A stretch of 64,000 bases of DNA from Bdellovibrionales bacterium (GTDB taxonomy: Bacteria; Bdellovibrionota; Bdellovibrionia; Bdellovibrionales; UBA1609): positions 331,388-395,387 of the forward strand of contig OZ251471.1 of the NCBI GenBank assembly GCA_965242635.1. Direction: 5' to 3'. Below are positions 1,432-47,144 of the stretch, in pieces. The position numbers and the translations under genes were made by a program. Every line of letters starts with the position of its first letter. Within the stretch, counting starts at the first letter, position 1. Below the pieces are notes generated by a model. That model had not been told where the DNA came from, did not search any database, and saw nothing but the letters and a program-made list of their open reading frames with translations.

Positions 1432-1887
1432 TCACACTTGGTTCTCAACTTGTCCCTGCCTTGCAGGTCCGAAATAAGCCAGAGCCTCTATCTCCATATC
1501 AGCCCCTTTGGGCAGGTCTTTCACTATCACACAAAACCGGGCCGGAAAAGGGGCCTTGAAATAAGATCGATACACCTCATTCATCCGGGTAAAATCCTCA
1601 GCCCTTTTCAGAAAAATACCTGTCTTTATAATATGGTTGAAGTTTATTTTGTAAGTATCTAATATTATTTTAATATTTTTCATCACTTTTTTTGTCTGAA
1701 GACCTATATCACCGGAAACCAATGTTCCTGTGTCTGGATCCAAAGGGATTTGGCCGGAAATAAAAAGAAAGGGACCAGCTTTTCGGGCCGGCTCATAAGC
1801 CCCCAGAGGGGGCGGCAAGACGGAGCCCGTCCCTCCGGTCGAAACACCTGACGACCCACTCAGTGGCTTTTTTTGATTTTGAGACAT
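1432..1887 (-). CDS. ridA: RidA/YjgF/L-PSP family deaminase with a ~25-aa repeat-derived N-terminal extension
   Basis: GPFLFISGQIPLDPDTGTLV...FPARFCVIVKDLPKGADMEIEALAY is typical of the RidA family. The N-terminus SSGVSTGGTGSVLPPPLGAY is an R2 unit. Confidence 0.85.
   Translation of the reverse strand: MSQNQKKPLSGSSGVSTGGTGSVLPPPLGAYEPARKAGPFLFISGQIPLDPDTGTLVSGDIGLQTKKVMKNIKIILDTYKINFNHIIKTGIFLKRAEDFTRMNEVYRSYFKAPFPARFCVIVKDLPKGADMEIEALAYFGPARQGQVENQV
1798..1857. repeat. R2 solo 60-bp unit in the 5' end of ridA
   Basis: AAGCCCCCAGAGGGGGCGGCAAGACGGAGCCCGTCCCTCCGGTCGAAACA matches the units at 1152-1331. Confidence 0.8.
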
Positions 1888-2025
1888 AAAAATCCCCTTT
1901 CAGAGGACTGGTCTGCCACAAATTGTTGACCTGGTCAAACCAAACTGGCATACCACATTGACTCAAAAGTCAAAAAAAACTGGAAAAAGCTTGACTTTTT
2001 GGCTCTCAGGAGCTATAAACAAATT

Positions 2026-2401
2026 ATGGAATTTTTAAGGAAATACAGCCCTCTTTTCACTTTCGGGATATTGGCTATCGCCATTGTGGCCCTCATCATA
2101 GGCCAATTCAGGGATGTCAGAACAGAAGTCAAAGAGGTCCGAACGGAGCTGAAAGCAGATATAGCACAGGTCCGAACGGAGCTGAAAGCAGATATAGCAC
2201 AGGTCCGAACGGAGCTGACAGCGGATAGCACAGGTCCGAGGCGAAATTAAAGAGGTCCAAACGAAGCTGACAGCCCGGATGGATCGTATGGAGGCTCACA
2301 TGAACCGAACAGATGCCAAAATAGACCGGCTGGGTGATAAAATGGACGCCCTTATTGTCTCTCTTTCCAACAACAGAAAACCAGCCACCAAACCCCGATA
2401 A
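2026..2401 (+). pseudogene. small membrane-anchored coiled-coil protein (ELKAD repeats), apparently frameshifted
   Basis: MEFLRKYSPLFTFGILAIAIVALIIG is followed by VRTELKADIAQ x3. The third 33-bp unit is only 31 nt (about 2226). The coiled coil continues in the next frame (VRGEIKEVQTKLTARMDRMEAHMNRTDAKIDRLGDKMDALIV...) to TAA at 2399-2401. Confidence 0.5.
2137..2233. repeat. tandem 33-bp repeat (2 full units plus one 31-nt unit)
   Basis: GTCCGAACGGAGCTGAAAGCAGATATAGCACAG at 2137-2169 and 2170-2202. A variant lacking 2 nt lies at 2203-2233. Confidence 0.9.
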
Positions 2402-2428: not shown

Positions 2429-3826
2429 TCAGGAGTCGTCTGACAATTCTTCGTCCAAATGATGTTTTCGCAGACGATAACGAAAAGCCCTTAAAGAAAG
2501 CCTGAGCAAATTGGCGGCCGGGGTTTTGGCTCCGCCGGTTCTCTGTAAAGCTTTTTGCAAAAGGCTTTTTTCCAACCCATCCATAAGCAGAGGCAAGTCC
2601 AGCCCTTTTTCCGGCAAAGCCACATTTAATTCAGAAGGAGCTATGGAGGGTTTTAAGGTTTTTTCTTTTAAAGCGGATAAAATATCCTCGTCCTCTATTT
2701 TTTTTCTTTCACTTAAAATCATCACCCGCTCCATCAGGTTTTCCAATTCCCGCACATTACCGGGCCAATGGTATTCCTCCAGCAGGGAAATGGCTTTTTC
2801 AGAAATGGTTTTCGTATCCAATTTGAGTTTTTTTTTGTGTTTTTGCAAAAAGTGCTGAACAAAAAAAGATATGTCCTCTTTTCTTTCCCGCAAAGGGGGA
2901 ATATTGATTCGGATCACATTCAGGCGATAAAACAGATCCTCCCTGAATTGCTTTAAGGCCACCATTTTTTCCAGTTTCCGGTTGGTGGCTGTGATCAAAC
3001 GCACTTCCACTTTTTTATCCGCCATCGCCCCCACCATCCTTATGGTCTTTTCCTGAAGGGCACGCAACAGTTTTGGCTGAACCATCAAAGGCAGTTCCCC
3101 TATTTCATCCAAAAACAGGGTGCCTCCCTCCGCCAACTCAAAAAAGCCTTTTTTGTCGGCCACCGCCCCGGTAAAAGAACCTTTTTTGTGGCCAAACATC
3201 TCCGATTCAATCAAAGTTTCCGGTATGGCCCCACAATTTACCGCCACAAAGGGCTGGTCCTTTAAAGCACTTTGGCTGTGAGCCAGACGAGCCACCATTT
3301 CTTTTCCCGTGCCACTTTCCCCTGTGATCAGTATATTGGAGGAGGAATGTGACAAATGTTGAATGTCCTTGACAATTTTTTGCATGGCCTGAGACCGGCC
3401 CACCAAAAAACCGCCCGTATCATGGTGTTTTTTGTCCTCTTTGTTTGTTTTTTGCAGTTTTAGAGCAGAAAACACCACCCGTTTTATTTCCTCCACATTA
3501 AAAGGCTTGGAAATATAATCATAAGCCCCCATCTTCATGGCCTGAACCGCCGTTTGTGTGGTGTCAAAGGCAGTGATAAGAATAAATACCATGTCGGCGT
3601 GAAGTGGTTTGGCCTTCTCCAACAGCTGAAGACCGGACATGCCTGGCATCTTCATGTCAGAGATCACCATGTCAAAGGATTTTTGTTTCAACAGCTGGAA
3701 GGCTTTGTCCCCGTTTTCAGCCACAGTCACCTCAAAGGCCTGGTCTTCAGACAGGCGGCTGAATAAAATCTGAAAAAACTCCCTAATGGAAGGCTCATCA
3801 TCCACAATAAGAATTTTTTTGCTCAT
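2429..3826 (-). CDS. sigma-54-dependent response regulator (NtrC/PilR family: REC + AAA+ + Fis-type HTH)
   Basis: The REC domain shows ILIVDDEPSIRE and ISDMKMPGMSG. Walker A is GESGTGKE. The GSFTGA (GAFTGA-like) loop is present. C-terminal HTH is AANLLRLSLRAFRYRLRKH. Confidence 0.9.
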   Translation of the reverse strand: MSKKILIVDDEPSIREFFQILFSRLSEDQAFEVTVAENGDKAFQLLKQKSFDMVISDMKMPGMSGLQLLEKAKPLHADMVFILITAFDTTQTAVQAMKMGAYDYISKPFNVEEIKRVVFSALKLQKTNKEDKKHHDTGGFLVGRSQAMQKIVKDIQHLSHSSSNILITGESGTGKEMVARLAHSQSALKDQPFVAVNCGAIPETLIESEMFGHKKGSFTGAVADKKGFFELAEGGTLFLDEIGELPLMVQPKLLRALQEKTIRMVGAMADKKVEVRLITATNRKLEKMVALKQFREDLFYRLNVIRINIPPLRERKEDISFFVQHFLQKHKKKLKLDTKTISEKAISLLEEYHWPGNVRELENLMERVMILSERKKIEDEDILSALKEKTLKPSIAPSELNVALPEKGLDLPLLMDGLEKSLLQKALQRTGGAKTPAANLLRLSLRAFRYRLRKHHLDEELSDDS

Positions 3827-3829
3827 ATA

Positions 3830-4192
3830 TCACTTTTTTTGTGCCATAGCCACTTTGGATTTTTGCCTGTCGGCTTGCGACTTTTGCAGGGCAGAAGGGT
3901 CTGCTTTGTGCACCATAGTCACAGCGGACTTTGTTCGTGCCGAACGACCTGCCTTTTTCAGGGCCAAAGCGGTGGACTTGTGCTCCACCATGTGCTGGAC
4001 CAGAAGAGTGCGAATCTCCCGGATATCAGCCTTCAGCTCCCGATTGTCAGCTTTCAGCTCCCGATTGTCAGCTTTCAGCTCCTGATAGTCTGTCTTCAGG
4101 TCAGCCTTCAGGTCGCTCAGACGCACCTCCATATAAGTGATAAGCCCCACCACTATAAAAACCACCACCGCATTATTCTTCAACCACTCCAT
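3830..4192 (-). CDS. small membrane-anchored coiled-coil protein (ELKADNR heptad repeats), 3 nt upstream of the regulator gene
   Basis: MEWLKNNAVVVFIVVGLITY TM segment. ELKADNR is encoded by 21-bp tandem repeats (about 4025-4085). SD GGAAAGGAGGG lies before the ATG. It is a paralogue of 2026..2401. Confidence 0.6.
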   Translation of the reverse strand: MEWLKNNAVVVFIVVGLITYMEVRLSDLKADLKTDYQELKADNRELKADNRELKADIREIRTLLVQHMVEHKSTALALKKAGRSARTKSAVTMVHKADPSALQKSQADRQKSKVAMAQKK

Positions 4193-4269: not shown

Positions 4270-4278
4270 GGCCACAAA

Positions 4279-4815
4279 GTGGACGATCTGAAGAAGAGAT
4301 TTGGAAAGAATGTGCTGAATTTTTGTCCCAAAGTGCTGAATATTCAGGATTTGGATATGGAAAAAGACACAAAGGGCTTGACATCCCGGCCTGTTTTGTT
4401 TACTTTAAAGCATATATGGCGGTTGGATGAAGCCAAGGTCCGCAAGTTTTTTATTTTGGGGCAGGAGCTAAGCCATGAGGAGAGGGAGGCTTTGGTTGGC
4501 CGGGCTGTGGACTATATGCGGAGATATGATCGAAACTTCAGTTGGAAGATGTTGCGGACTGTGGAGATTAAAACAATAAAAAGAAAGGGGGGAAGGATTA
4601 TGACTCCAGTATTGCAGTATTCATTGGATGAGGCACAGGAAAAAGGCATACAAAGAGGCTGGAAAAAAGGCTGGAAAGAAGGCGTGCAGAAAGGTATGCA
4701 ACAAGTTGCGTTAAATATGCTGAAAAAATCAGCGGATATGGCCTTTATTGCAGAAGTGACAGGCTTGTCTGAGGAAAAACTTAAAAAACTGAAAAAGCTA
4801 AAAAACAGCTCCTAA
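4279..4815 (+). pseudogene. Rpn (YhgA-like) family recombination-promoting nuclease, C-terminal remnant only
   Basis: The C-terminus KGIQRGWKKGWKEGVQKGMQQVALNMLKKSADMAFIAEVTGLSEEKLKKLKK is the characteristic Rpn tail. No PD-(D/E)XK N-domain is present. GTG start. Confidence 0.5.
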
Positions 4816-4846: not shown

Positions 4847-7516
4847 TTAAAGGCCACGGACAATGGGGCGTCTGCTACCCCCACGGTTAATGCCGGTGCC
4901 AGAACCTCCTTTGTCAGTATCACCCCCACCACCGGTATGGGTGGTGCCACCCCCGCCAGTATGGTTGAACGGCACAAGACCTCCACCTCCGCCCCCGGAT
5001 ACGATTTGATAATACTGCATCTGCAATCGTTGGATCTCTGTCTGTATATGACCTGCGGCCTGCATTTTTTGCATATAATTGTTCATTTGAGACTGCATAA
5101 AGGCCATACGTGCCTGCTGATACTGCATATAAGCCTGCATGCCTCCCCCACCCTGCATCATCATACCACCCATCATACCCATCATACCACCGCCAAAGGG
5201 ACCTCCGCCCCAAGCTCCACCACCAAAGGGACCTCCGCCAAAGGGACCACCACCCATGTTAATAACAAAACCCTGCATGCCTCCGCCAAAGGGACCTCCG
5301 CCCATCATCATACCGCCACCAAAGGGACCTCCACCCCAGGGACCAGCACCGCCCATGTTGATGGCAAAACCTCCCATACCACCACCAAAGGGACCTCCGC
5401 CCCAGGCTCCACCGCCCATGCTTTGCATGAGATACATTTGTTGCATATAGTGTTGTTGCCGTGCCATCATCATTTGCTGTTGCATGAAGGGGTTGCCGAA
5501 GACATGGCCATGCCCTCCCCATGCGGTGGGGGAGCAGGCCAGTGAGGATCTGGAGCTTCCAAAAATCCCTCCACCGTAAAGCCCTTTCATTATAAATGGG
5601 TAGGCCAGTTGCATGGCGTATTGGGGCTGGGCTGAAAAGCCCTGCATGTCTCTTAATTTGTTGGCTTCTTTTATGCCATAGTAACCCAAAGCGGCCGCCC
5701 CCACAGTCCCTATGATATTGCCAAAGGTCTCCCACCCGGAGGGGGCCGGGTCTATAATTTCTTTTAATTCTCTGAGCCTGTTTTTCATACAATCATCACA
5801 AGACTCCCCTTCTGTATCCGCCAGATTGTCCATATCATCCTGTATTTCACCCAGCTCCGCCAGTAACTCCTTTTCCTCTTTCTTAAGCTTTTTTCTGTGT
5901 TCTATGGCAGATTTTAACTTCTCAAGTATATCTACGCACAAGTCTGGGTCCAATCTTTCATTCTCTCCATCAATTTTTACTTTGAGACCCTTATCAACGG
6001 TTAAAACTTCTCCACCTGGCTTGCGAACAACACAAGAGTTTAATCTGTTCTGACAAATTCCTTCTGTGACAGTTCCTTCTTCGTCTTCATCTGTACAATT
6101 TCCCCATCGCTTCCAAGCCTTACATTCAGAATCTTCTTCATCTCCTCCTCCATCTCCTCCTCCATCTCCTCCTCCATCTCCTCCTCCATCTCCTCCTCCA
6201 TCTCCTCCTCCATCTCCTCCTCCATCTCCTCCTCCATCTCCATTGCTTGTTCCTTCTGCTGTTGGTGCTCTATCACCAGCACCAGCAGAAGGCTCATTTT
6301 CACTTGTTGCAAAACTACTTGTTGTAGGTGGCTGTGCATCATTATCTGTAGCATCGACACATTTATAGACGAGCTGGTTCCCGATATGAACCGTTACTGG
6401 TTTTATCTTGTTACTTGAAGTTGAACCCTCACAATTTATAGAATCCTTTATGGTTTCTAAGACACATTCCGGCTTACCCACAGAATCCACCCACACTTTT
6501 CCTTGTGAGCAAACACATTTTTCGCCTTGTACCATGCCTCCCGCTCTGTCTTTGCAGGGACCCTCCTGTCTAACACATCTTTTTTTAAATGGCTCATATC
6601 CCTGCACACACTGGGTATCGCTACAACCCCAAACACCAGGTTTTACTATTACTGCCACTTTATTTTGAGGATCACAGTCTTTTTGAGCCTGCTCTCTTGT
6701 TTTTGCTCTTTTTTCTTTTGCTACATCTTCTGCTGTGGAACACGTAGTGCCATGACTAAGGTTACTTGAATCAAACGACTCCTTATTATCACCGTATTTA
6801 CATACACAATTGCCTTTTCCATCTATAGGCTCAGCATTGGGACCACAACTGAATGCAACACATTGTGTTTTATCAAGATTTGGTTTATTTCCCTTTTTAC
6901 AGCTTGTACATATTACCTTTTCTTTAGTGCTGTCATACCCCTGTGTTAAACAGGATGACATCATACTACTGAAGGCGGGGGGGATGATGTGGGAGGCCAC
7001 TTTACGGGCCAAAGCCTTGGTGATCTTTTTTTCCTTTTGCAACTGCCATGACAGACCTTTCAAAAAAGCCAAAAAGGGAATCTCCTTTAAACTCTCATGG
7101 TAAAAGTTGCTTCTTACACTTAATGAATCGTCGTTGTCTTCACAATTGTCCGGACAATAATCGCAAGAGGCATCATCACGTGTTTGATCTTTTCCCATAT
7201 ATCGTACAATCTGGCTTGTTACATCTTGATCTTCATTATCGCCGATTCTTTTAGCTATTATCCTTCTTAGCTTCCTTATCTCCTGTTTAGTTTCTTTAAG
7301 AGCACTTTTATACCTTTCCAACTCCTCCAGTTTTCTCTTCTGTTTTTTTCTCAAGCTGGCTTCTGATGGGCCACGGCCATAGCCTGCCTGAAGAGCCTGC
7401 ATATATAAAGGCAAAGCACAATTGGCCCCGCCCTGCTGAGGCATCATATATGCTTTTGCAGAAAAACAAAACAAAACCAAAACCACAACAGCCACAAAGT
7501 GACTGACAATGGCCAC
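4847..7516 (-). CDS. large secreted or membrane protein: signal peptide, coiled coils, Cys-rich region, (GDGG)8, hydrophobic segment, Gly/Phe/Met/Gln-rich tail
   Basis: The ORF is open to 7723, but residues upstream of 7516 are translated repeats (RYVAIVSHF, SFPRKRES). The in-frame GTG at 7516 gives MAIVSHFVAVVVLVLFCFSAKA. The tail has six GGGPFGGG motifs. Confidence 0.6.
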   Translation of the reverse strand: MAIVSHFVAVVVLVLFCFSAKAYMMPQQGGANCALPLYMQALQAGYGRGPSEASLRKKQKRKLEELERYKSALKETKQEIRKLRRIIAKRIGDNEDQDVTSQIVRYMGKDQTRDDASCDYCPDNCEDNDDSLSVRSNFYHESLKEIPFLAFLKGLSWQLQKEKKITKALARKVASHIIPPAFSSMMSSCLTQGYDSTKEKVICTSCKKGNKPNLDKTQCVAFSCGPNAEPIDGKGNCVCKYGDNKESFDSSNLSHGTTCSTAEDVAKEKRAKTREQAQKDCDPQNKVAVIVKPGVWGCSDTQCVQGYEPFKKRCVRQEGPCKDRAGGMVQGEKCVCSQGKVWVDSVGKPECVLETIKDSINCEGSTSSNKIKPVTVHIGNQLVYKCVDATDNDAQPPTTSSFATSENEPSAGAGDRAPTAEGTSNGDGGGDGGGDGGGDGGGDGGGDGGGDGGGDGGGDEEDSECKAWKRWGNCTDEDEEGTVTEGICQNRLNSCVVRKPGGEVLTVDKGLKVKIDGENERLDPDLCVDILEKLKSAIEHRKKLKKEEKELLAELGEIQDDMDNLADTEGESCDDCMKNRLRELKEIIDPAPSGWETFGNIIGTVGAAALGYYGIKEANKLRDMQGFSAQPQYAMQLAYPFIMKGLYGGGIFGSSRSSLACSPTAWGGHGHVFGNPFMQQQMMMARQQHYMQQMYLMQSMGGGAWGGGPFGGGMGGFAINMGGAGPWGGGPFGGGMMMGGGPFGGGMQGFVINMGGGPFGGGPFGGGAWGGGPFGGGMMGMMGGMMMQGGGGMQAYMQYQQARMAFMQSQMNNYMQKMQAAGHIQTEIQRLQMQYYQIVSGGGGGGLVPFNHTGGGGTTHTGGGGDTDKGGSGTGINRGGSRRPIVRGL
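6141..6242. repeat. 12-bp tandem repeat (about 8.5 units) encoding (GDGG)n
   Basis: TCTCCTCCTCCA is reiterated on the plus strand. Confidence 0.95.
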
Positions 7517-7626
7517 ATAGCGACTGGCAAAGTAGCCACAAAGGGATTCCCGCTTTCGCGGGAATGACAGAAAGCGACTGACAATGGCCACAAAGTGACT
7601 GACAATGGCCACATAGCGACTTTGAT
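7484..7626. repeat. R3: degenerate 21-23-bp tandem units flanking a GC hairpin
   Basis: GCCACAAAGTGACTGACAATG / GCCACATAGCGACTGGCAAAGTA and similar units lie on both sides of the hairpin at 7546-7565. Confidence 0.75.
7546..7565. repeat. R4 hairpin ATTCCCGC-TTTC-GCGGGAAT (copy 1)
   Basis: Perfect 8-bp stem. The 25-nt block GATTCCCGCTTTCGCGGGAATGACA is identical to the copy at 7770-7794. Confidence 0.9.
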
Positions 7627-7770
7627 TGGTTTTATTTTTGCTCTTATGATTGTTCATGCAATTGTTGTTATAAAAATTTGTGTTCATATAAAAACTCCTG
7701 AAATCGTCATTACCAGTTATCAAAAAGCCCCTAAGTTAATCACCACTGAAAAGGTCTTTTAGACGACCAG

Positions 7771-7845
7771 ATTCCCGCTTTCGCGGGAATGACATAAAAT
7801 GACCTGCAATTAGCCACAAAGTGGCCCGCAACAGACACAAAGCCT
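7771..7845. repeat. R4 hairpin copy 2 followed by two R3-like 22-bp units
   Basis: ATTCCCGCTTTCGCGGGAAT at 7771-7790, followed by GACCTGCAATTAGCCACAAAGT and GGCCCGCAACAGACACAAAGCC. Confidence 0.7.
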
Positions 7846-7998
7846 TCATGTCAATAAAATAACACAAACACCCGAAAAACCAAACACCATAAAGCAAAAC
7901 TCACAATAAAAAGGACTTTTTAAAACAGAAACTGGACCAAAGGCCACATGGTGGCTGGTAAAAAAAGGCTTAAAATTGGAGCGGACCATAGACAAACA

Positions 7999-8013
7999 AG
8001 CCCCCTTGGGGCT
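7999..8013 (-). terminator. hairpin overlapping the kinase stop codon (possible terminator)
   Basis: The minus strand reads AGCCCC-AAG-GGGGCT followed by TGTTTGTCT. Confidence 0.3.
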
Positions 8014-9733
8014 AACTGGCTTTGCGGGCCAGCTCTCCGGGGACCGGGTTGGAATTGAGGGGAAAGCGAATGTCAAAAATAGTGCCCCCTCCCTCCACAG
8101 GCTGATGTGATATAAACCCTTTGTAAAACAGCACCAATTTACGGGCTATGGAAAGCCCAAGGCCACTTCCTTTGGCTTTTTTGGAATAAAAAGGCTCATA
8201 TATAAAGGGCTTGTCCTCATCACTGATGCCAGAGCCTGTGTCCTTGACCCGAATCACCACCCATTCCCCATCATCAAAGCTCTCCAAAGTGAGAAAACCC
8301 TCTTTTTGACCGGCCATGGCCTCGCAGGCGTTCTTGACCACATTCCAAAAGACCTGCTTGAATTTGTCTGCCCGCCCCTCCACCAGGCCATGTGCCTTTA
8401 AAGTGGCATGGTGTTTGATATGATCCCAGCGGGGGTTGACCCGCACACTGTCCAAAAGCTCCTCCAATACAGAGTTGACCTCCACTATCTCCGTCTTCAA
8501 ATTCTTAAGCGTGTTCTCGTCAGAAGTATAGCTTAAAAATTCCCCTATAATACTGTTCAACCGGCTGATCTCACGCAAAGCCATGTCCATCAGTCTTTTG
8601 TTTTCTGCTTTGTTTTTATTGTCCAGATCCAAAAGTTGAATACTGCCCCCCACACTGGAAAGAGGGTTTCGAATCTCATGGGCTATGCCCACAGCCATGC
8701 GTCCAATACCTGCCAGTTTTTCCCTCTCCCGTGCCTTTTTTTCCAAAGACCTTGCCTCAGTCCAATCCTGAAACAAAACCAAATGCTTTTGTCTCCCTGA
8801 AGACTCTGCCCCCTTAATGGGAGATAAAAAAACCTCTATTGTTTTCTTTTCCGTCTCTGCCTGACACTCCAGCTCCATCCGACTGACATCTTTTTTGTTC
8901 TCAGACACAAGGCTCTCCCTCAATTCAGGAAAAACCTGCCGAAGAGGGGCGGAAAAACCAGGCGGAAGCCCCAATATTTTTCGGGCCTGGGGGTTGGAAT
9001 GAATAATGTGCATGTCCTCATCCAAAATAAAAAGCCCCATGCTCATGTTTTCCACTATCAGCTCGTTCAGATTTTCCAGCTGATCGGTCATTTTGTCACC
9101 CAAACCAATAAGCCAATCCCTCTCCTTTGCCTGAACACCAAAAAAACCGCTTAAGCCCGCCACAGCCATAAATCCCACATTGTTTAACACAAAAGCAAAA
9201 ACCAGAGACGAATAACTTTCCACCAAAGCCGGCTCAAAAAGCAAAACACAGGAAAACAAAAAAGACACCCAAAGTCCCTGAGCCAAAGCCCCCCTATACT
9301 GCCACAACAAACCTGCACCAAAAATACTCAGCATATATATAAAGCTCAAAACAGACGCAAGGGCCGGCAAAGCCACCCCAAGACACAAAGTCAAAAGGGC
9401 TGTATCCAAAGCCACCCACAAGCCCCCAAAGGGAGAGGCAAGACGAGTTTGACTCCTCTGCTCAAAGCTATGTGCCCGGAAGTCCCCCTGCTCAGAACGC
9501 CCGGACCCTCCATAGCAAAAGGAGTAAAAAAATATAAAATCCATGGCAAAACAGACAAACAGGCACATATAAGCCCAAACCCATGTGGTGGCATTTAAAA
9601 ACAAAGGTTGTGCAAACTGATAAGCCACAAAACCCACCAACAGAAGGGAGTGGACCGCCATCAAAAAAGAGCGAACCAAAAACAACCGGTTATAAGTCAA
9701 ATCCCTCGTGTTTTTCAAAGTCAGGCTTTGCAT
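8012..9733 (-). CDS. pilS: PilS-like sensor histidine kinase (multi-TM N-terminus, PAS, HisKA, HATPase)
   Basis: H-box GIAHEIRNPLSS. N/G boxes VFWNVVKNACEA, DTGSGI and GSGLGLSIA. Directly downstream of pilC. Confidence 0.75.
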   Translation of the reverse strand: MQSLTLKNTRDLTYNRLFLVRSFLMAVHSLLLVGFVAYQFAQPLFLNATTWVWAYMCLFVCFAMDFIFFYSFCYGGSGRSEQGDFRAHSFEQRSQTRLASPFGGLWVALDTALLTLCLGVALPALASVLSFIYMLSIFGAGLLWQYRGALAQGLWVSFLFSCVLLFEPALVESYSSLVFAFVLNNVGFMAVAGLSGFFGVQAKERDWLIGLGDKMTDQLENLNELIVENMSMGLFILDEDMHIIHSNPQARKILGLPPGFSAPLRQVFPELRESLVSENKKDVSRMELECQAETEKKTIEVFLSPIKGAESSGRQKHLVLFQDWTEARSLEKKAREREKLAGIGRMAVGIAHEIRNPLSSVGGSIQLLDLDNKNKAENKRLMDMALREISRLNSIIGEFLSYTSDENTLKNLKTEIVEVNSVLEELLDSVRVNPRWDHIKHHATLKAHGLVEGRADKFKQVFWNVVKNACEAMAGQKEGFLTLESFDDGEWVVIRVKDTGSGISDEDKPFIYEPFYSKKAKGSGLGLSIARKLVLFYKGFISHQPVEGGGTIFDIRFPLNSNPVPGELARKAS

Positions 9734-9734
9734 T

Positions 9735-10949
9735 TTAACCTCCTCCTGCTATGATGCCCGGCATCTTAAAAATGGGAACATATATGGAAATAACAATAAA
9801 GCCAATAAGGCCTCCCAGAAACACAATCAAAAAGGGCTGTATCAGATCGGAAATGGCACTGGTGGTGGTTTTCACCTGCTCTTCATAAAACTCTGCCACT
9901 TTTTCCAGTGTGGCATCTATATTGCCTGTTTCCTCCCCAATGGCCACCATGTTGGACACCAAAACCGGAATCACTCTCTCCTTTCTGAGAGACTGTGCCA
10001 CCGGTTTCCCTTTTATCACTTTGTCTTTGACATTCTGAATGGCCTTTTCCACAAAAAAATTATTGGAGGTCAAAGCAGAGGTGTTTAAGGCATCGGCCGC
10101 ACTCACCCCCCCCGCCAGCAGACAGGCCAAAGTTTTGCTGAAACGGGCCAGGCTGTTTTTTAAAACCAAAGGCCCTATCACCGGTGTCAACATGAGCAGT
10201 TGATCCTTCATGGCACGCCCGGCCGGTGAACGAAGATACATGATAAAAACAAAGGGAAGAAAGAAAAACAAAAGGCCCACAATAATAAAATGATTTCGAA
10301 GGGCATAGCTGGCCCCCACCAGTATTTTGGTGCTGAGGGGGAGTTCCACCTTGGAAGAGGCAAAAATATCAATAAATTTGGGTATGACCATAACCATAAT
10401 GGCCACAATAACCCCTATGCCTGTAACCAAAACAAAGCTGGGATACATCATGGCCTTTTTCACTTTTGATTTGAGTTTCTCACTTTCCTCTATATATTCC
10501 GCCAGACGACTCAACATGACATCCAGACTGCCCCCCACCTCCCCTGCAGAAATCATGCTGACATACATGGAAGAAAAGACCCCCGGTTGACTGGCCAAAG
10601 CGAAAGCGAAAGTGCTCCCTCCCTCCACACTGTTAATCAATTCGGTAATCACCAACTTAAGCTTGACATGTTGAGCAATTTCACGGACTATTCTGAGAGA
10701 CTGCACCAAAGGCACCCCGGCATTGATCAAAAAAGCCAGCTGTCGTGTAAAAATAACCAAATACTTGGAAGGGAGGCCTCCACCAGATCCACTGCCCAGA
10801 TTAAAAATGGATTTGTCCATTTCAATATGAACAGGTTCCAGGTTTTTGGCCCTGAGCATGCGGATGGCCTGGTTTTTGTTTTTGGCCTTCAGCTTGGCGG
10901 AAAACATCTTTCCGTCAGGTTTTTTGGCTTTAAAGGAAAAAGTATACAT
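9735..10949 (-). CDS. pilC: type IV pilus platform protein PilC (GspF family)
   Basis: 404 aa with two GspF-type repeats (e.g. SAGEVGGSLDVML, AIGEETGNIDATL). Position is after pilT. Confidence 0.9.
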   Translation of the reverse strand: MYTFSFKAKKPDGKMFSAKLKAKNKNQAIRMLRAKNLEPVHIEMDKSIFNLGSGSGGGLPSKYLVIFTRQLAFLINAGVPLVQSLRIVREIAQHVKLKLVITELINSVEGGSTFAFALASQPGVFSSMYVSMISAGEVGGSLDVMLSRLAEYIEESEKLKSKVKKAMMYPSFVLVTGIGVIVAIMVMVIPKFIDIFASSKVELPLSTKILVGASYALRNHFIIVGLLFFFLPFVFIMYLRSPAGRAMKDQLLMLTPVIGPLVLKNSLARFSKTLACLLAGGVSAADALNTSALTSNNFFVEKAIQNVKDKVIKGKPVAQSLRKERVIPVLVSNMVAIGEETGNIDATLEKVAEFYEEQVKTTTSAISDLIQPFLIVFLGGLIGFIVISIYVPIFKMPGIIAGGG

Positions 10950-10963
10950 TATGTTACCTCTTT

Positions 10964-12049
10964 TTATCCTGCCCGTCGAAAGTTCTGACGCGCTTTGGAC
11001 ATCATGTCGTTCAGTTCATTTGGCTCATAGCTGACAGACAAAGCGGCTTCCTCGCTCACCAGCCCCTTCTGCAAAAGCCCCACCAAAGACTGATTTAATG
11101 TCAACATCCCCAAAGCTTTTTGTGTCTGCATAATGCTGTAAATTTGTTGTTGTTTTCCCTCTTTTATCAGGTTCCGGATGGCCGGAGGAAACAACAACAC
11201 CTCCACAGCTGGCACCCTGGCTTTTCCATCCACAGTGGGGAGAAGCTTTTGGGATATAACCCCCTGCAAAACCTGAGACAGTTGATTTTGTGTTTTTTGC
11301 CTTTCATCTCCACTGAACATGCCTGTCATTCTCTCTATGGTCTGGCTGGCGTTGTTGGTGTGAAGTGTGCCAAAAGTGAGGTGGCCTGTTTCCGCTATAT
11401 GCAGGGCGGTTTCCACCGTCTCTTTGTCCCGCATCTCACCCAAAAGGCATATATCCGGATCCAAACGCAAAGCGGCCCTCAGAGATTGATGAAAGGTGGG
11501 GGCATCAAACCCAATCTCCCTTTGGTTTACAAGCGATTTTTGGTGGCTGTAAATAAACTCTATAGGGTCTTCAATGGTTAAAATATGAGATTTGCGGGTT
11601 TTGTTTATCTCGTTCAGCATGGAAGCCAAAGTGGTGGTTTTTCCACTCCCCGTAGGCCCTGTCACCAAAATCAGCCCAAAAGGCTTTTTGCTCAATTCAA
11701 ACAAAATGGAGGGAAGGCCCAGGTCGTTTATGGAGGGAATCAGCATGGGGATTTGACGAAAACAGCCCGCCACAGATCTTTTTTGATAATAAATATGCCC
11801 CCGAAACCGTGCAGAGTTGTCAATGGAAAAACTGAAATCCAGGTCTTTGTCCACCTCCACCTGAGCTTTTTGCTCATCCGTCAGAAGAGTGTAGCAAAGA
11901 TCTTTGCTCTGCCTGGGATTTAAAGGGTCCACATTCAGGCGGACAATATCACCTCTGATCCTCAGGCTGGGCGGGGCCCCAGGGGTGATATGCACATCCG
12001 AGGCCTGCTCCCGCACGGCGGTTTTAAGAATTTGCACCATGGAAATCAT
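10964..12049 (-). CDS. pilT: twitching-motility retraction ATPase PilT
   Basis: ASDVHITPGAPPSLRIRG, Walker A GPTGSGKTTT and LVGEMRD-type LLGEMRD. 361 aa. Confidence 0.9.
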   Translation of the reverse strand: MISMVQILKTAVREQASDVHITPGAPPSLRIRGDIVRLNVDPLNPRQSKDLCYTLLTDEQKAQVEVDKDLDFSFSIDNSARFRGHIYYQKRSVAGCFRQIPMLIPSINDLGLPSILFELSKKPFGLILVTGPTGSGKTTTLASMLNEINKTRKSHILTIEDPIEFIYSHQKSLVNQREIGFDAPTFHQSLRAALRLDPDICLLGEMRDKETVETALHIAETGHLTFGTLHTNNASQTIERMTGMFSGDERQKTQNQLSQVLQGVISQKLLPTVDGKARVPAVEVLLFPPAIRNLIKEGKQQQIYSIMQTQKALGMLTLNQSLVGLLQKGLVSEEAALSVSYEPNELNDMMSKARQNFRRAG

Positions 12050-13833
12050 AGCCTGTCCTCCAGGGTTCCATACATAACCTCCTCAACAGAAGTTATGCCC
12101 GCACTCAATTTTTCCAGTGCACTCATCCTCAAAGTCTGCAGTTGGTCTTTTTCAATGGCAAGAGCCTTTAACTTCTTGGGGGAAAGCCCTTTAAAAATAC
12201 CTGTCTTCAACTCAGGAAATATCTCCAGAACTTCAAAAACAGCCACCCGGCCCTTGTAACCCGTGGAGTTGCAGTAACGGCAACCTTCCGCCTTCATCAC
12301 CTGAGATCTCACCGCCCCCGCCTTCTCTCTGGAAAAGCCCAGCTCCATTAAAGTCCTTATGCTGGGATTTTGAGGGATCTTGCATTGCTCACAAAGCACC
12401 CGCAAGAGCCTTTGAGCCACCACAATGGAGGTGTTGTCGGCCACACTGTAAGCAGGAAGCCCTATGTCCACCAAACGGGTAATGGTGGAGGTGGCGTCAT
12501 TGGTATGCAAAGTGCTGAGCACCAAGTGGCCTGTGGCAGAGGCCCGATAGGCTATCCGGGCGGTTTCCTCATCCCGTATTTCCCCCACCAAAATCACATC
12601 CGGATCCTGCCGGAGAAAAGAGCGAAGAACACTGGAAAAAGTAAGCCCTATTTTGGCGTTCACCTGCACCTGATTTATGCCATTGATTTTATACTCCACA
12701 GGATCCTCCACAGTGGCAATATTCCTGTGTGATTTGTTGAGGAGTTGCAGGCCCGAATAAATGGTGGTGGTTTTTCCACTCCCTGTAGGCCCTGTCATCA
12801 GTATCAACCCCTGACTCACACTTAAATGTTTTTTAAAGGCCTTGAGCTGGTTTTCATTCATGCCCAAATTGGTTATTTCCTGTCCAAGGGCAGAGGAATC
12901 CAGTATCCTCATCACCACTTTTTCCCCGTTGACCACGGGCATGGTGTTGACCCGGAAATTGATGATACTGCCATCCATTTTGATTTTCAGCCGTCCGTCC
13001 TGCGGCAGTCTCTTTTCACTGATGTCCAGATTGGAAATAACTTTTATACGACTGACTATGGAAGAGGCCAGCGACTTGGGAGGGTGAATATACTCAGACA
13101 AATGCCCATCCACTCTGAAACGAACACGGCAGACTTTTTCATAGACCTCAATATGGATGTCTGAACAATTCATGCGAACACTCTCTTTGATAATATGATT
13201 TACACTTTGAACAGCGGGGCTGTCTTTGATATGCTTGTTATGCAGGGCCTGTTCATTTTCCACTCCGTCCGGCTCTTCCTCCTCCATATCCATTTCCACC
13301 ACAGAAAACAGGTTTTTAATCTGATTGCCACTCTCCCCTTTATGATAAAAGGTGATCATCTTTTCAATTTCATCCCTTTCCCCCACCATCATTTCCACTT
13401 TGGAGTTGGTTAAAAGAGATACATCATCCCTGGCCTGCATATCTCCAGGATCAGAAAAAGCCACTATAAGGGTCCCTTCCACCTCCATGACCGGAATGAG
13501 ACCATATTTTTCACAAATTCTTCTGGGAATTTTCAACACCACCTTGGGATCAATCTCAAACTCAGAAAATTGGATCTTTTGCAGATGATGTTCCTTTGCC
13601 ATCAAATCGGCTATCTGCTTGTTGGAATACTGCTTGGAATCAAAAACAGAGTTTAAAAACTCCCTTCTGTCCTTCCCGGCCATGGCACAGATCCTGGACC
13701 ATTGCTTTTTGGGTAAAATATCCCATTTTTTTTTGTCTCTCTCCTGGACCTGTGCTCTTTTGTGCTTGATCAGAGCCTGTGTTTTCACATGGTCCGGCTT
13801 TTGAGTGGCCTGTTTTGCTCTCATTGGTCTCAT
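12046..13833 (-). CDS. pilB: type IV pilus assembly ATPase PilB (GspE family)
   Basis: T2SSE N-domain. Walker A GPTGSGKTTT. Tetracysteine CEQC...CRYC. ATGA overlap with pilT. The true start may be internal. Confidence 0.9.
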   Translation of the reverse strand: MRPMRAKQATQKPDHVKTQALIKHKRAQVQERDKKKWDILPKKQWSRICAMAGKDRREFLNSVFDSKQYSNKQIADLMAKEHHLQKIQFSEFEIDPKVVLKIPRRICEKYGLIPVMEVEGTLIVAFSDPGDMQARDDVSLLTNSKVEMMVGERDEIEKMITFYHKGESGNQIKNLFSVVEMDMEEEEPDGVENEQALHNKHIKDSPAVQSVNHIIKESVRMNCSDIHIEVYEKVCRVRFRVDGHLSEYIHPPKSLASSIVSRIKVISNLDISEKRLPQDGRLKIKMDGSIINFRVNTMPVVNGEKVVMRILDSSALGQEITNLGMNENQLKAFKKHLSVSQGLILMTGPTGSGKTTTIYSGLQLLNKSHRNIATVEDPVEYKINGINQVQVNAKIGLTFSSVLRSFLRQDPDVILVGEIRDEETARIAYRASATGHLVLSTLHTNDATSTITRLVDIGLPAYSVADNTSIVVAQRLLRVLCEQCKIPQNPSIRTLMELGFSREKAGAVRSQVMKAEGCRYCNSTGYKGRVAVFEVLEIFPELKTGIFKGLSPKKLKALAIEKDQLQTLRMSALEKLSAGITSVEEVMYGTLEDRL

Positions 13834-19858: not shown

Positions 19859-20962
19859 TCACCTCTTTGCCGGTCGGTTCGCGACCTTTTTCCTGTTTAA
19901 AGGGATTTTAATGGGATGGCTTTTCTCCAGCATGCGGGCCAGATGAGTGATATTTAAATGTGTGTATTTCTCTGTGGCGGAAAGAGAGCTGTGCCCCAAC
20001 AACTCCTGAAGAGAACGCAAGTCAGAACCACTGCTCAACAGATGAGTGGCAAAGCTGTGCCTTAAAACATGAGGGCTTATGGGTTTGTTCAATCCGGCTT
20101 TTTGACCCCAATACCGGACCCGGTCATAAGCCTTTCTGACAGAAAGGCCCAGCACCAGGCCATTTAAAGAGGGACAGAGACCTCTTTGAAACTGAAATTC
20201 CTTTAAAGCCATTTCCGGCAAAACACAAAGCCTCTCCCTTCCCCCCTTGCCCCGGATCCGTAAAAACCGGTCCTCCACCTGCCTCCACTTCAATCCACAG
20301 GCCTCACTGACCCTCAAGCCCCCTCCATAAAGCATTAAAATCAACAACAGATCCCTTCTGTTATCTTGATGAGCGGATTGTCCCGATACGGCCTGTTTCA
20401 CTGTCTGAACAAGGCACAAGGCCTCATCCACAGACAAATAATGAGGGAGTTTCCGGGGAACAGAAACCAGTTTAATGCGGGAATGAAGGTCCTGTTTTAT
20501 CAAACCCTCCTCAAACAGCCATTTCAGAAAAGCCCGGACACAGGCCATTTTACGGTTCTGGCTGGCCGGGGCCAGTTGGGCCCATTTCCGGGCACTTTTA
20601 TGGACCGACTGCTCCAATTTTGCCAAAAAAAGCCCCCTGTCTGACCTTAAAACACCCCCGGCGGGCACGGCCAGCTCATCATGAGACAGGTCCAAAAAGC
20701 AGTTTTGGGCCTCTGTTGAAAGAAAAGACAGACAGGGAGAGGAGAAAAAAGCCAGGAACTGTCTTAAATCCATACAGTAAGATTTCAGGGTATGGGGCGA
20801 GCAGGACCTCTGAAATTCCAAATATTTCAGATATTTACAAATAAATTGTCGTATTTTAAGACAGTGTGTAAATATTACACGGTCTGATTTTTTTAACTTT
20901 TTTGTAAAAAATTTACATATTTTCATTGAAAAATTTTCAATACTTTGGTAGACAAATGACAC
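19859..20962 (-). CDS. tyrosine recombinase, XerC/XerD-like
   Basis: GLRVSEACGLKW, HVLRHSFATHLL and LLGHSSLSATEKYTH (R..HxxR..Y). The C-terminal KVANRPAKR is encoded by an R3-like unit (19862-19893). Start uncertain. Confidence 0.8.
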   Translation of the reverse strand: MSFVYQSIENFSMKICKFFTKKLKKSDRVIFTHCLKIRQFICKYLKYLEFQRSCSPHTLKSYCMDLRQFLAFFSSPCLSFLSTEAQNCFLDLSHDELAVPAGGVLRSDRGLFLAKLEQSVHKSARKWAQLAPASQNRKMACVRAFLKWLFEEGLIKQDLHSRIKLVSVPRKLPHYLSVDEALCLVQTVKQAVSGQSAHQDNRRDLLLILMLYGGGLRVSEACGLKWRQVEDRFLRIRGKGGRERLCVLPEMALKEFQFQRGLCPSLNGLVLGLSVRKAYDRVRYWGQKAGLNKPISPHVLRHSFATHLLSSGSDLRSLQELLGHSSLSATEKYTHLNITHLARMLEKSHPIKIPLNRKKVANRPAKR

Positions 20963-22962: not shown

Positions 22963-24405
22963 ATGTTCATCACTACAGAACCAAAACCCAGTATAAATAA
23001 AGAGCATGTATTTTTAACAAAAATAGAAAGGTCAGATGCTTTTCTTGCAAATTATTTTTGGGACAAATTGGTTATTGACGACAGGCTTAAAAGAAAAATG
23101 GTCAGTTTTCAAGCCAACAAGAACCATAAATACTACAGATGGTATAAATACAAAGAAGCTTTTTCCTCAGACTTGGTTAAATATCTTTTTGGTAAATACC
23201 CGGTTAATAAAGGAACGGTTTTTGATCCTTTTGCAGGAGCAGGCACAGCTCTTTTTGCCTGTGCTGAATTGGGTTACCATACTGATGGTGTTGAAGTCCT
23301 TCCAATAGGGCAACAAATTATATCAGCCAATATTTTGGCCAGAAATCACTGTAACCCATTCTTGGTTGAAAAGTTAAAATACTGGTCAGAAAATGCCATT
23401 TGGGACCGTAAAGGAAAGATAAAGCCTTTTGAAATTTTGCGAATAACAAAAGGAGCTTATCCTCCGGAAACGCATTATAAAATCAAAAGATATTTATATG
23501 AATTACAACATGAGAAGACAGAAGTTCAAAAAATACTTATGCTTGCTCTGTTATGTATTTTGGAATCAGTAAGTTATACCAGAAAAGATGGACAATTTCT
23601 ACGCTGGGATATGAGATCAGGTCGTGGAAATGGAAAAAATTTATTTAATAAAGGTGAAATTATCCCTTTTGGCCAAGCTATAAAGAAAAAGCTTGCAGAA
23701 ATTATAGAAGATATAACTGTAAACAGTGAGAATATGGATTTTTTTTCAGATATAAATACAAATTCTCAAGTCGGAAGGGTCCAATTATTGAAAGGTTCCT
23801 GTTTAAATGTGTTACCTAAAGTACAAGATGAATACTATACAGGCATTATTACTTCCCCTCCGTATTGCAACCGCTATGATTATACAAGAACTTATGCTTT
23901 GGAACATGCTGTTTTGGGCATCGATGATTCCGAACTGTCATTATTGCGTCAGGCCATGTTAAGTTGCACTGTTGAAAATAAATCAAAAAAATTGCTGTCA
24001 ATTAACAAAGAATGGAAACCAGCAATGGATATTTGCAGTAACCAGGAATTGTTGCATGACATATTAAGCTACCTGGAGTACAAAAAAGAAAAAAAAGAGC
24101 TTAATAACAACGGGATAGTGAAAATGGTCAAAGGATATTTTTATGAGATGGCTTGTGTGATTCAGGAGTGTTATAGAATTTTGAGCCCCAATGGCTATAT
24201 GTTTATGGTAAACGATAATGTCAGATATGCTGGAGTGTCTGTCTCTGTTGATATGATTTTGTCCAAAATGGCAGAACAGCTTGGTTTTACAGTCGAGAAT
24301 ATCCTTTTCCTCCCTCAAGGAAAAGGCAACAGCTCCCAACAAATGGACAGACATGGCAAGAAAGAATTGAGAAAATGTATATATGTATGGAGAAAGGAAA
24401 AGTAA
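22963..24405 (+). CDS. DNA amino-methyltransferase (N6-A or N4-C)
   Basis: Motif I VFDPFAGAGTALF lies about 200 aa upstream of motif IV IITSPPYCNRYDY. More A/T-rich by eye than the flanking genes. Confidence 0.75.
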   Translation: MFITTEPKPSINKEHVFLTKIERSDAFLANYFWDKLVIDDRLKRKMVSFQANKNHKYYRWYKYKEAFSSDLVKYLFGKYPVNKGTVFDPFAGAGTALFACAELGYHTDGVEVLPIGQQIISANILARNHCNPFLVEKLKYWSENAIWDRKGKIKPFEILRITKGAYPPETHYKIKRYLYELQHEKTEVQKILMLALLCILESVSYTRKDGQFLRWDMRSGRGNGKNLFNKGEIIPFGQAIKKKLAEIIEDITVNSENMDFFSDINTNSQVGRVQLLKGSCLNVLPKVQDEYYTGIITSPPYCNRYDYTRTYALEHAVLGIDDSELSLLRQAMLSCTVENKSKKLLSINKEWKPAMDICSNQELLHDILSYLEYKKEKKELNNNGIVKMVKGYFYEMACVIQECYRILSPNGYMFMVNDNVRYAGVSVSVDMILSKMAEQLGFTVENILFLPQGKGNSSQQMDRHGKKELRKCIYVWRKEK

Positions 24406-25373: not shown

Positions 25374-25387
25374 AAAAAGAGGAAAGT

Positions 25388-28390: not shown

Positions 28391-28415
28391 AAACATTAAA
28401 CCGGAAATTTGTCTT

Positions 28416-47066: not shown

Positions 47067-47144
47067 AAACACTATAAACATACAAGCCAAACAAAAAAGA
47101 TGAAATTTATGTAAAAAGGGACTTGAAATCCTGTTTTACATAAG

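Follow-up and report, generated by a model that had tools for sequence, protein, structure and literature searches.

We analysed a 64,000-nucleotide stretch of a Bdellovibrionales bacterium genome (the window; assembly GCA_965242635.1, contig OZ251471.1, positions 331,388 to 395,387), concentrating on a long open reading frame (ORF) on its reverse strand at positions 4847-7723. The ORF sits in a 4.2-kb insert between the genes for a PilS-type kinase (8012-9733) and a PilR-type sigma-54 activator (2429-3826), within a pilB-pilT-pilC-pilS-pilR cluster. A first-pass annotation, made from the letters of the window, had described its product as a giant secreted protein with a Cys-rich ectodomain and a repetitive tail. 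We find that the protein belongs to an unnamed, undescribed family which, as far as it has been sampled, is confined to uncultured Bdellovibrionales, and whose cysteine counts point to a tail outside the cytoplasm. The features of the gene are listed here (positions are those of the window; aa, amino acids; UTR, untranslated region; REP, repetitive extragenic palindrome; AF2, AlphaFold2).

7771 to 7955, reverse strand: upstream non-coding region, with a REP-like palindrome (7771-7790) and GCCAC-N3-GTGGC palindromes (7813-7825 and 7943-7955)
7517 to 7723, reverse strand: repeat-derived 5' leader or UTR, with a 21-nt array (7571-7621) and the REP-like palindrome ATTCCCGCGAAAGCGGGAAT (7546-7565)
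4847 to 7687, reverse strand: family gene, with start ATG 7687 (946 aa) or GTG 7516 (889 aa) and stop at 4847-4849
7448 to 7516, reverse strand: hydrophobic region of the signal peptide, VAIVSHFVAVVVLVLFCFSAKA, with an A-x-A cleavage site before Y; aligns with the signal peptides of homologues
7343 to 7438, reverse strand: conserved N-terminal motif QQGGANCALPLYMQALQAGYGRGPSEASLRKK, with the first conserved Cys inside; columns N32-L42 invariant in alignment A1; present in remote members
7244 to 7363, reverse strand: Lys/Glu-rich coiled coil 1 (AF2 helix 52-91, pLDDT 60-75)
7058 to 7222, reverse strand: conserved Q-I-x-x-Y ... C-x-Y-C motif and hydrophobic motif YHESLKEIPFLAFLK
6146 to 6952, reverse strand: hypervariable central slot, here a Cys-rich block, a Ser/Thr/Pro linker and (GDGG)x8
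6032 to 6124, reverse strand: C-x2-W-x2-W-x2-C motif (CKAWKRWGNC) and two more conserved Cys (alignments A1 and A3)
5789 to 5947, reverse strand: coiled coil 2, then an invariant CxxC (CDDC, 5789-5800); AF2 helix with pLDDT 88-97 from a 71-sequence alignment
5525 to 5725, reverse strand: family-defining core, with uncharged helix 1 (FGNIIGTVGAAALGYYGI), basic loop (KEANKLRDMQG...), helix 2 (YAMQLAYPFIMKGLYGGG) and an invariant Cys in ACSPT
4850 to 5500, reverse strand: low-complexity tail, made up of the next five features
5417 to 5500, reverse strand: Gln/Met helix A
5141 to 5416, reverse strand: Gly/Met/Phe/Pro repeats with six GGGPFGGG
5000 to 5140, reverse strand: Gln/Met coiled-coil helix B
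4874 to 4999, reverse strand: Gly/Thr-rich stretch
4850 to 4873, reverse strand: conserved tip RRPIVRGL

The frame runs through 958 codons without interruption (ORF list), and every element that had been noted in it is present. TTG 7723 is merely the first mechanically possible start. In a survey of start codons and ribosome-binding sites, ATG 7687 was preceded at 7 nt by AGGAG (7695-7699), while in alignment A1 the N-termini of the homologues align from GTG 7516 onwards. All start variants give an identical mature chain of about 866 aa, beginning with the Y that follows ...SAKA, so the protein is large rather than giant.

A conserved protein family in uncultured Bdellovibrionales

Scans of the window protein against Pfam, NCBIfam and PHROGs gave no match, and at E<=0.01 no Pfam family was found in it or in 14 relatives. 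A search of PDB sequences with the family profile reached a best E of 0.27. Homologues were nevertheless found. Four close ones come from metagenomes (E 1e-95 to 1e-161). When 1.84 billion representatives were searched with a profile, 109 relatives scored E<=1e-3, of which 56 reached E<=1e-10 and 24 reached E<=1e-30. Scanning a single genome for each GTDB species yielded one locus, in a 'Bdellovibrionales bacterium' metagenome-assembled genome (MAG), and the only named relatives are entries called 'hypothetical protein' from Pseudobdellovibrionaceae or Bdellovibrionales MAGs. We looked up 20 cluster representatives; each stood for a 90% cluster of only one or two members, mostly from ENA assemblies. 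A word-indexed search with a core-only alignment found four short relatives; the full-length 15-sequence alignment gave no hits, presumably since words from low-complexity sequence filled the candidate list. The first-pass annotation could assign the protein to no bacterial family. This is correct for curated families and solved structures, but an unnamed, conserved family of about 100 proteins, without a Pfam, NCBIfam or PDB relative, can now be defined.

Members share an N-terminal hydrophobic region and a common plan: a signal peptide; a C-A-L-P-L-Y-M-x-A-L motif with coiled coil 1; Q-I-x-x-Y...C; a hydrophobic (I)PF..FL; a variable centre; C-x2-W-x2-W-x2-C with two further Cys; coiled coil 2 with its CxxC; and a 96-aa core. 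The window protein has the N-terminal set (signal peptide, C-A-L-P-x-x-M-x-A-L, coiled coil and CxxWxxWxxC; alignments A1 and A3) and falls in a long-tail subfamily by its 225-aa uncharged tail, Gln/Met helix and tip. Its strongest hydrophobic window is the N-terminal segment ...VAVVVLVLFCFSAKA (Kyte-Doolittle 19-residue mean 2.69). The Lys/Glu coiled coils that had been noted on either side of the centre appear as long predicted helices (ORF residues 121-160 and 593-638). Invariant positions in alignment A1 include Q102, I103, Y106, C121, E141, E145, L149, F151 and L152 in the N-terminal part, and C465, W468, W471, C474, C488 and C495 after the centre; across the 15 diverse sequences of alignment A3, C488 is still invariant and W471 is conserved at 90% or more. 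The CxxC that follows coiled coil 2 is invariant in 71 sequences. We rejected a lipoprotein, as there is no lipobox and the residue preceding the first conserved Cys in alignment A1 is N, which is unfit.

This conservation bears on whether the ORF is functional at all. It could be a decaying or repeat-generated frame on a mobile insert: its 5' end is built of local repeats, it shares the insert with a truncated Rpn-type gene (below), and its homologues all come from MAGs, with singletons or two-member clusters behind the representatives that we looked up. However, the frame stays open over 2.9 kb, protein-level conservation is strong, with invariant Cys, Pro and Gly across about 100 relatives, the C-terminal tip is still in frame after hundreds of repeat codons, and the AGGAG before ATG 7687 is canonical. 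We give this explanation almost no credence.

A cassette-like centre

Between the conserved flanks, the centre of the window protein contains a Cys-rich block and the GDGG tract. The block is dense over about 200 aa (18 Cys across residues 258-455), rather than the 300 aa or so first proposed. The eight GDGG units occupy ORF residues 495-526 and, as had been noted, are perfect and encoded by a 12-nt DNA repeat (6139-6241; 8.6 copies, 100% matches). Other members fill the same slot differently: with (AAEDAAKKK)n in the protein of locus L004, poly-(AAAAD) in protein P0005, Lys/Glu/Arg helices in P0003, and unrelated Cys-rich modules, repeated perfectly four to eight times, in P0008, P0019 and P0072. 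Even close relatives differ here. In the alignment of P0001 with P0002, identity is 100% for the first 50 columns at the N-terminal end and for most of the last 350 or so at the C-terminal end (blocks of 50 columns range from 82% to 100%), but falls to 18-62% in the centre. P0004 and the protein of L004 show this pattern too, with flanks kept and centres diverged. By these alignments, neither the Cys-rich block nor the GDGG tract defines the family; both are lineage-specific contents of a hypervariable slot. By analogy, such cassette-like turnover may be of the kind seen in the exposed, partner-contacting segments of surface proteins.

The two-helix core and the low-complexity tail

A 96-position hidden Markov model (HMM) of the core was found in 101 of 111 proteins, and the window protein matches it over all 96 positions (E 1.7e-45). 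The pattern reads CxxC ... P-x-P ... helix 1 ... AN.LR..QG loop ... YPF(I)..GLYG helix 2 ... Cys, in which C, C, P, G and C do not vary among the 71 aligned sequences; helix 2 contains an invariant Pro and is followed by an invariant Cys. Helix 1 is essentially free of charge in 98 sequences. In the window protein it corresponds to the one hydrophobic segment of the first-pass annotation (FGNIIGTVGAAALGYYGI, residues 667-684); the segment is there, but it is not a confident transmembrane helix, since its Kyte-Doolittle 19-residue mean is 1.06 and a bitopic protein would be expected to have a helix of about 19 residues with a mean of about 1.6, the usual transmembrane threshold, or more. AF2 models the core as all-helical from the 71-sequence alignment (pLDDT 71.6), and Foldseek found no match to this model in PDB or BFVD (best E 5.3 and 3.4). 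We see two possible arrangements of the core: a hairpin of helices dipping into the membrane, its basic loop in the cytoplasm, or the buried middle of an oligomer outside the cytoplasm.

The tail after the core is 225 aa long, shorter than the 300 aa or so first given, and of the low-complexity composition described: G 33%, M 13%, Q 10%, F 5%, Pro 4% and K+R+D+E 5%. The six GGGPFGGG motifs begin at residues 775, 797, 808, 824, 829 and 839, and the MQ-rich stretches are two Gln/Met-rich helices. The reported terminal poly-Gly does not hold, as the Gly-rich end precedes the conserved tip. Of its seven FG dipeptides, six lie within GGGPFGGG, and the spacers are Gly/Met. Gln and Asn together make up 13%, with Gly and Met dominant, so it is not a Q/N-rich prion-like domain. 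The suggested resemblance to FG-type or prion-like domains does stand at the level of an uncharged low-complexity composition of the FG, prion-like or elastomer type.

Tails of 190-330 aa follow the core in 69 members. Pooled, they contain G 25.5%, M 10.0%, Q 9.8%, P 7.5%, A 7.0%, F 5.9%, N 5.3%, about 5% K+R+D+E and 0.0% Cys, compared with 3.8% Cys in the pre-core part of the family proteins. Many end in a conserved tip (...IIRGI or ...PIIEGR; hydrophobic-x-G-(R/I/L)), and a Gln/Met heptad helix follows the repeats in most of the closer members, the window protein included. The repeats themselves vary from member to member: GGGPFGGG, GGFNMGMPGMGG, GMMPGMMGGG, PGFQGG and GGFPGGGGFGGG. As composition is kept while the motifs differ, selection would seem to act on bulk properties, not on a fold. 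A further 24 members (a few truncated fragments counted in) end about 20 residues past the core, many of them Tyr-rich at the end.

Cysteine parity and topology

Counted from the first conserved Cys to the C terminus, the cysteines of 26 out of 27 full-length members come to an even number (range 10 to 56); the lone exception seems to be truncated at its N terminus. When the invariant Cys after helix 2 is left out, the count becomes odd in 26 of 27 (binomial p = 4e-7, in a test that rests on related sequences and shows pairing, not the identity of the partner). The mature window protein has 30 Cys, 29 plus the one after the core (residue 730). The variable centres gain and lose Cys pairwise, which argues that the cysteines form disulfides, the post-core one with a partner in the ectodomain. 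This Cys, and with it the segment after helix 2, would then lie on the oxidising side of the inner membrane, and no hydrophobic stretch follows it. On these statistics, the invariant post-core Cys is disulfide-linked to the ectodomain and the 225-aa tail is extracytoplasmic.

This placement argues against a cytoplasmic prion- or condensate-type role. The corresponding model is a bitopic inner-membrane protein, N terminus out and C terminus in, whose cytoplasmic FG/prion-like tail forms condensates or recruits the ATPase encoded beside the gene in some relatives (below). This is the natural reading of a signal peptide, one transmembrane segment and a low-complexity tail. Helix 1 is an uncharged stretch of 18 residues followed by the conserved basic loop AN.LR..QG, the composition resembles that of cytoplasmic prion-like domains, and the neighbouring ATPase is itself cytoplasmic. 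Cytoplasmic hub proteins, such as SSB, also often combine a disordered linker with a conserved terminal tip. We nonetheless find this topology unlikely, as parity puts the post-helix-2 Cys in a disulfide-forming compartment in 26 of 27 members, the hydrophobicity of helix 1 is below the usual transmembrane threshold in most members, and the segment preceding helix 1 is as K/R-rich as the loop.

An extracytoplasmic tail with 13% Met (10% family-wide) and many MxxM/MGGM spacings might also serve as a periplasmic sponge for Cu(I)/Ag(I), or as a redox buffer, binding soft metals or scavenging oxidants. Met-rich periplasmic copper proteins are well known (CusF, CueO and PcoE). Yet several tails (those of P0014, P0043, P0068, P0074 and P0104 among them) have only 0-3% Met while retaining Gly/Phe/Pro/Asn repeats, and His, Asp and Glu, the usual companions of Met in copper motifs, are nearly absent. 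Copper-resistance genes are not consistent neighbours either; only L008 has a multicopper oxidase gene, a single one some 7 kb downstream. A metal-binding or redox role is thus very improbable.

Genomic neighbourhood

The gene does lie in an insertion in the pil locus, as first described, but this does not make it a pil-specific cargo. The four closest homologues lie in unrelated gene contexts, none of the 13 homologue loci has the gene between pilS and pilR, and the window protein shows no Pfam or NCBIfam match to a known Pil component. Because the closest homologues are found elsewhere, we conclude that the gene is not a pil component, and the differing contexts rule out a pil-specific function.

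A different association recurs. In 6 of 14 loci (L005, L006, L007, L008, L009 and L013), the gene adjoins a divergent pair encoding a TadA/VirB11-like ATPase (366-387 aa) and a short secretin (423-642 aa), and the family members concerned are only 20-40% identical. In the window itself, a TadA/CpaF-like ATPase gene (32260-33378, reverse strand) lies beside the tmRNA gene (33881-34234, reverse strand); its product is 30% identical to the ATPase next to family genes (E 7e-43). No secretin was detected anywhere in the window. In B. bacteriovorus, a pilQ/cpaF pair is formed by bd3306/bd3307 (PMC3818213).

The pair suggests another possibility: that the protein is released through the neighbouring secretin as an extracellular adhesin, matrix or silk-like fibre, unanchored, with the core acting as a soluble oligomerisation domain. 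Besides the adjacency in the six loci, a hypervariable centre is typical of exposed proteins, the tail is similar in composition to the structural elastomer abductin (PMC13052691), and the hydrophobicity of the two core helices is too low to call either of them transmembrane securely. Against release, no pseudopilin or platform genes accompany the secretin pair, the pair is missing from the loci of the window's subclade, and neither core helix has a polar face in the sampled alignment sequences, which would be unusual for a soluble domain unless the helices are fully buried. We consider a released fibre unlikely.

Convergent with the gene, in the same insert, is the remnant of a gene for Rpn, a YhgA-like recombination-promoting nuclease:

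4279 to 4815, forward strand: truncated gene of the Rpn / PD-(D/E)XK 'transposase'-like type, C-terminal half only

Its product matches NCBIfam TIGR01784 (E 7e-7, positions 222-273 of 273) and phrog_3300 (E 3e-14, positions 172-312 of 313), and does not have the combination of PD-(D/E)XK domain and HTH_Rpn_C that makes a full member. In L008 (7829-8726) and L009 (8295-9206), too, full or fragmentary Rpn genes separate the secretin gene from the family gene. This suggests that Rpn-type recombination moves or reshuffles the family gene. The genes of a class A penicillin-binding protein and, next to it, a UvrA-like ATPase (window 25349-31262) lie 18 kb from the gene here, compared with within about 1.5 kb downstream of the homologue in L001 (13760-19649), which suggests that the family gene or its surroundings have been rearranged in the window genome.

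A second uncharacterised family, of about 560-810 aa, with a signal peptide and SGHHTGYFAG...LMGC motifs, recurs beside the family gene, often directly upstream and co-oriented. BLAST clustering recovered it in six loci, and alignment added two more. Searches of Pfam and PDB gave it no match, and the window lacks a copy. The eight positions are:

L003, 4783 to 6534
L004, 3386 to 5719
L005, 1688 to 3577
L007, 7887 to 9587
L009, 1 to 1913
L010, 8968 to 11409
L011, 7477 to 9468
L013, 8235 to 9869

Locus L005 also has a short-tail and a long-tail paralogue of the family in tandem (8001-10238 and 11241-13304), as possibly does L012 (3019-6141 and 6358-8190), and such pairs may indicate hetero-oligomers.

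A proposed disulfide-stapled stalk with a cohesive tail

The reading that we favour builds on the conservation, architecture, cassette variability, cysteine parity and gene adjacency described above. It holds that the protein is exported and forms a coiled-coil stalk in the envelope or at the surface, stapled by disulfides, with a cohesive, elastic or adhesive tail, associated with a secretin or type IV filament-like machine. It remains tentative; we put its probability at roughly 0.45.

The signal peptide would be cleaved after ...SAKA, and the N-terminal 570 or so residues would form an oligomeric coiled-coil stalk stapled by the conserved disulfides. The stalk bears the cassette-like, rapidly changing repeat insert seen in our comparisons, a pattern of variability expected for contact with a variable outside partner, perhaps prey, phage or matrix. 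The uncharged, Gly/Ala-rich helices of the core would make either a membrane-dipping hairpin or a buried oligomer centre. After the core, the chain would be bonded back to the ectodomain through the invariant Cys, keeping the tail extracytoplasmic, as the parity statistics indicate. Framed by its two Gln/Met helices, the tail would serve as an element that is cohesive or behaves like an elastomer or gel, with a tip that may dock on a partner. From the gene neighbourhood, the partner machine would be secretin-based and type IV filament-like: in many relatives it may consist of the short secretin and TadA/VirB11-like ATPase, and in the window the gene's own setting is inside the type IVa pilus cluster. 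We infer the oligomeric state, the mode of anchoring, the material properties and the functional link to the secretin from these patterns.

Several observations weigh against the stalk reading. The secretin/ATPase pair is absent from the window's own subclade (the window and L001-L004), and no platform protein or pilins are found near the pair where it occurs. The pil location of the window gene may itself be an accident of recombination, given that the Rpn remnant adjoins the gene. Family-wide, helix 1 is weakly hydrophobic (Kyte-Doolittle mean 1.15, range -0.07 to 1.68) and helix 2 is not hydrophobic (mean 0.55), and since both flanks of helix 1 are K/R-rich, the positive-inside rule is indecisive on topology. 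A full-length AF2 model, built from a 5-sequence alignment, is too poor for use (pLDDT 37). The two plausible starts leave the form of the signal peptide uncertain, and the limits of the parity test given above also apply.

A bolder version takes the protein as an extracytoplasmic counterpart of cohesive polymers of the FG-nucleoporin or abductin type, in which core-anchored stalks would carry a Gly/Met/Phe/Gln brush that forms an elastic, self-healing gel at a secretin/TadA-type machine. If true, such a gel could be a seal, gate or glue at the predator-prey junction, with the cassette-variable centre giving partner specificity. This version is speculative and, we think, decidedly improbable. 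For the stalk reading in general, a tail that proved cohesive or elastic would be a rare functional low-complexity polymer phase in a bacterial envelope. The trio of a disulfide-stapled variable stalk, a two-helix Gly-rich core and an abductin/FG-like tail that is apparently extracytoplasmic has not been described together in bacteria. The recurrent link to a minimal secretin and TadA-like ATPase points to an unstudied envelope machine in a predatory lineage, and the Cys-parity argument offers a cheap topology prediction, namely which Cys partners Cys730.

Comparison with known systems

As judged from sequence, the nearest analogues are compositional, not homologous. Abductin, the extracellular elastomer of the molluscan hinge ligament, has the consensus GGFGGMGGGX (PMC13052691). 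Elastomers of this kind form a cross-linked random-coil network. Abductin is extracellular and the family tails are probably extracytoplasmic; both are Gly/Met/Phe-rich and nearly uncharged, with repeats adjoining a Cys-containing cross-linking region, and comparable motifs occur in the window protein (GGGPFGGGMMMGGGPFGGGMQGF), P0016 (GGMFGGMPGMMGG) and P0005 (GMMPGMMGGG). However, the analogy is without sequence homology; the family tails are richer in Pro (7.5%) and Gln (10%), and the window tail has Gln/Met coiled coils around it and forms part of a large structured protein. FG-nucleoporins and prion-like domains are similar in being uncharged, with Phe-Gly and Met 'stickers' in Gly/Gln/Asn spacers, in keeping their composition while the motif drifts, and in being anchored by coiled coils. 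The C-terminal domain of TDP-43 is such a low-complexity domain, rich in Gly, Met, Phe, Asn and Gln. FG nucleoporins typically have many FG dipeptides (GLFG, FxFG and similar) between hydrophilic spacers and form hydrogels or selective phases, and prion-like domains belong to cytoplasmic proteins that can convert to amyloid. The window tail differs in having only seven FG, spacers that are Gly/Met and not Ser/Thr-rich, and a probable extracytoplasmic location, again with no homology.

The core is reminiscent of glycine-zipper hairpin proteins (SlyB, Rick_17kDa_Anti and the Gly-zipper Pfam families), which are exported and also have two short, uncharged, Gly/Ala/Ser-rich helices joined by a short loop; both are candidates for a membrane-dipping or oligomer-forming hairpin. 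The Pfam models Gly-zipper_Omp, _OmpA and _YMGG and Rick_17kDa_Anti gave no match at E<=0.01 in 15 members. The family also differs in its lack of a lipobox, its longer conserved loop (AN.LR..QG), the invariant Pro in helix 2 and the invariant Cys after it. For the whole protein, streptococcal M proteins and trimeric adhesin stalks are known as repeat-variable coiled-coil surface proteins. They share with the family a signal peptide, long coiled coils, a conserved anchoring end, and tandem-repeat variation in length and sequence in an exposed segment. The family has no LPXTG, beta-barrel or lipobox; instead, it has a Cys-rich, disulfide-stapled stalk and a Gly/Met tail beyond the anchor-like core. 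On sequence grounds, we regard the family as new, with the plan of a repeat-variable exported envelope protein joined to a low-complexity polymer module.

The neighbouring secretin and ATPase recall the Tad-like 'Kil' predation apparatus reported for Myxococcus, Bradymonadales and Bdellovibrionales, which has a short secretin, a single CpaF-type ATPase and genes of unknown function around them (PMC8460266). Common to both are a predatory lineage of delta-proteobacterial type, an unusually short secretin, a single CpaF/TadA-type ATPase and many adjacent uncharacterised genes. Yet the neighbour ATPases (366-387 aa) have no Pfam match on record beyond T2SSE and no apparent FHA domain, no platform, CpaB or pilin genes lie beside the pair, the window has no adjacent pair, and no Kil protein is described with the architecture of the family. 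A relation of the pair to KilC and KilF of the Kil apparatus is a lead only.

Repeats and palindromes at the 5' end

The first-pass annotation had the 5' region of the ORF built from repeats, which is what we find. Depending on the start, its first 36-207 nt are local repeat DNA serving as a 5' UTR or a long leader, without a counterpart in homologues (alignment A1). There are two 21-nt tandem arrays, at 7490-7543 and 7571-7621, the first of which partly supplies the coding region of the signal peptide. The REP-like perfect palindrome ATTCCCGCGAAAGCGGGAAT occurs at 7546-7565 and 7771-7790, 225 nt apart, each copy within a repeat of about 41 nt. Within the 64-kb window, arrays and palindrome are confined to this site. 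If ATG 7687 is the start, one copy of the palindrome is translated in frame as ...FPRKRES....

Similar expansions occur elsewhere. At the 5' end of the L005 paralogue 11241-13304, 69-nt and 57-nt tandem repeats (11218-11624) duplicate the start of the signal peptide (GFLLAQSIYFVRSVFKPSL x3); they echo the 21-nt arrays of the window, and leader repeat expansion could be recurrent and perhaps phase-variable. In the window, the N-terminal regions of ORFs 67-1386 and 1432-1887 (both reverse strand), the latter encoding a RidA/L-PSP protein, contain translated copies of another repeat (…STGGTHSVLPPPLGAY…), which shows that repeat DNA has been incorporated at gene 5' ends more than once in this genome.

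Upstream of the gene, GCCAC-N3-GTGGC has two perfect copies and no other perfect copy within the 64 kb; a copy with one mismatch lies at 4271-4283, on the far side of the family gene and the Rpn segment. The palindrome at 7943-7955 and its flank, TTTRGTCCAGTTT, are conserved upstream of the closest homologue (L001 9652 and 9713), even though the next gene upstream is not the same there. The palindrome may act as an operator or mark a site of recombination. We rejected a sigma-54 promoter in this conserved element, as inspection by eye found no TGGCAC-N5-TTGC, and also an upstream riboswitch or small RNA, as the only Rfam match in the window is the tmRNA.

Other features of the window

Two small paralogous ORFs flank pilR, at 3830-4192 (reverse strand), within the insert, and at 1999-2250 (forward strand). 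In both, a single hydrophobic helix at the N terminus leads into tandem heptads such as ELKADNR (21-nt repeat at 4026-4099), and weak PHROG matches include phrog_9415 (E 1e-10) and an Rz-like spanin (E 9e-5). ORF 3830-4192 ends with a stop codon directly upstream of the pilR start codon. Further away, a tyrosine recombinase gene lies at 19859-20962. A low-GC island at 22963-25373 (33-34% vs about 46%) encodes a DNA methylase (weak N6_N4_Mtase match) and a BsoBI-type restriction endonuclease (Pfam E 6e-141), and is probably an acquired restriction-modification system. A second low-GC stretch, at 35-36%, spans 47001-49000.

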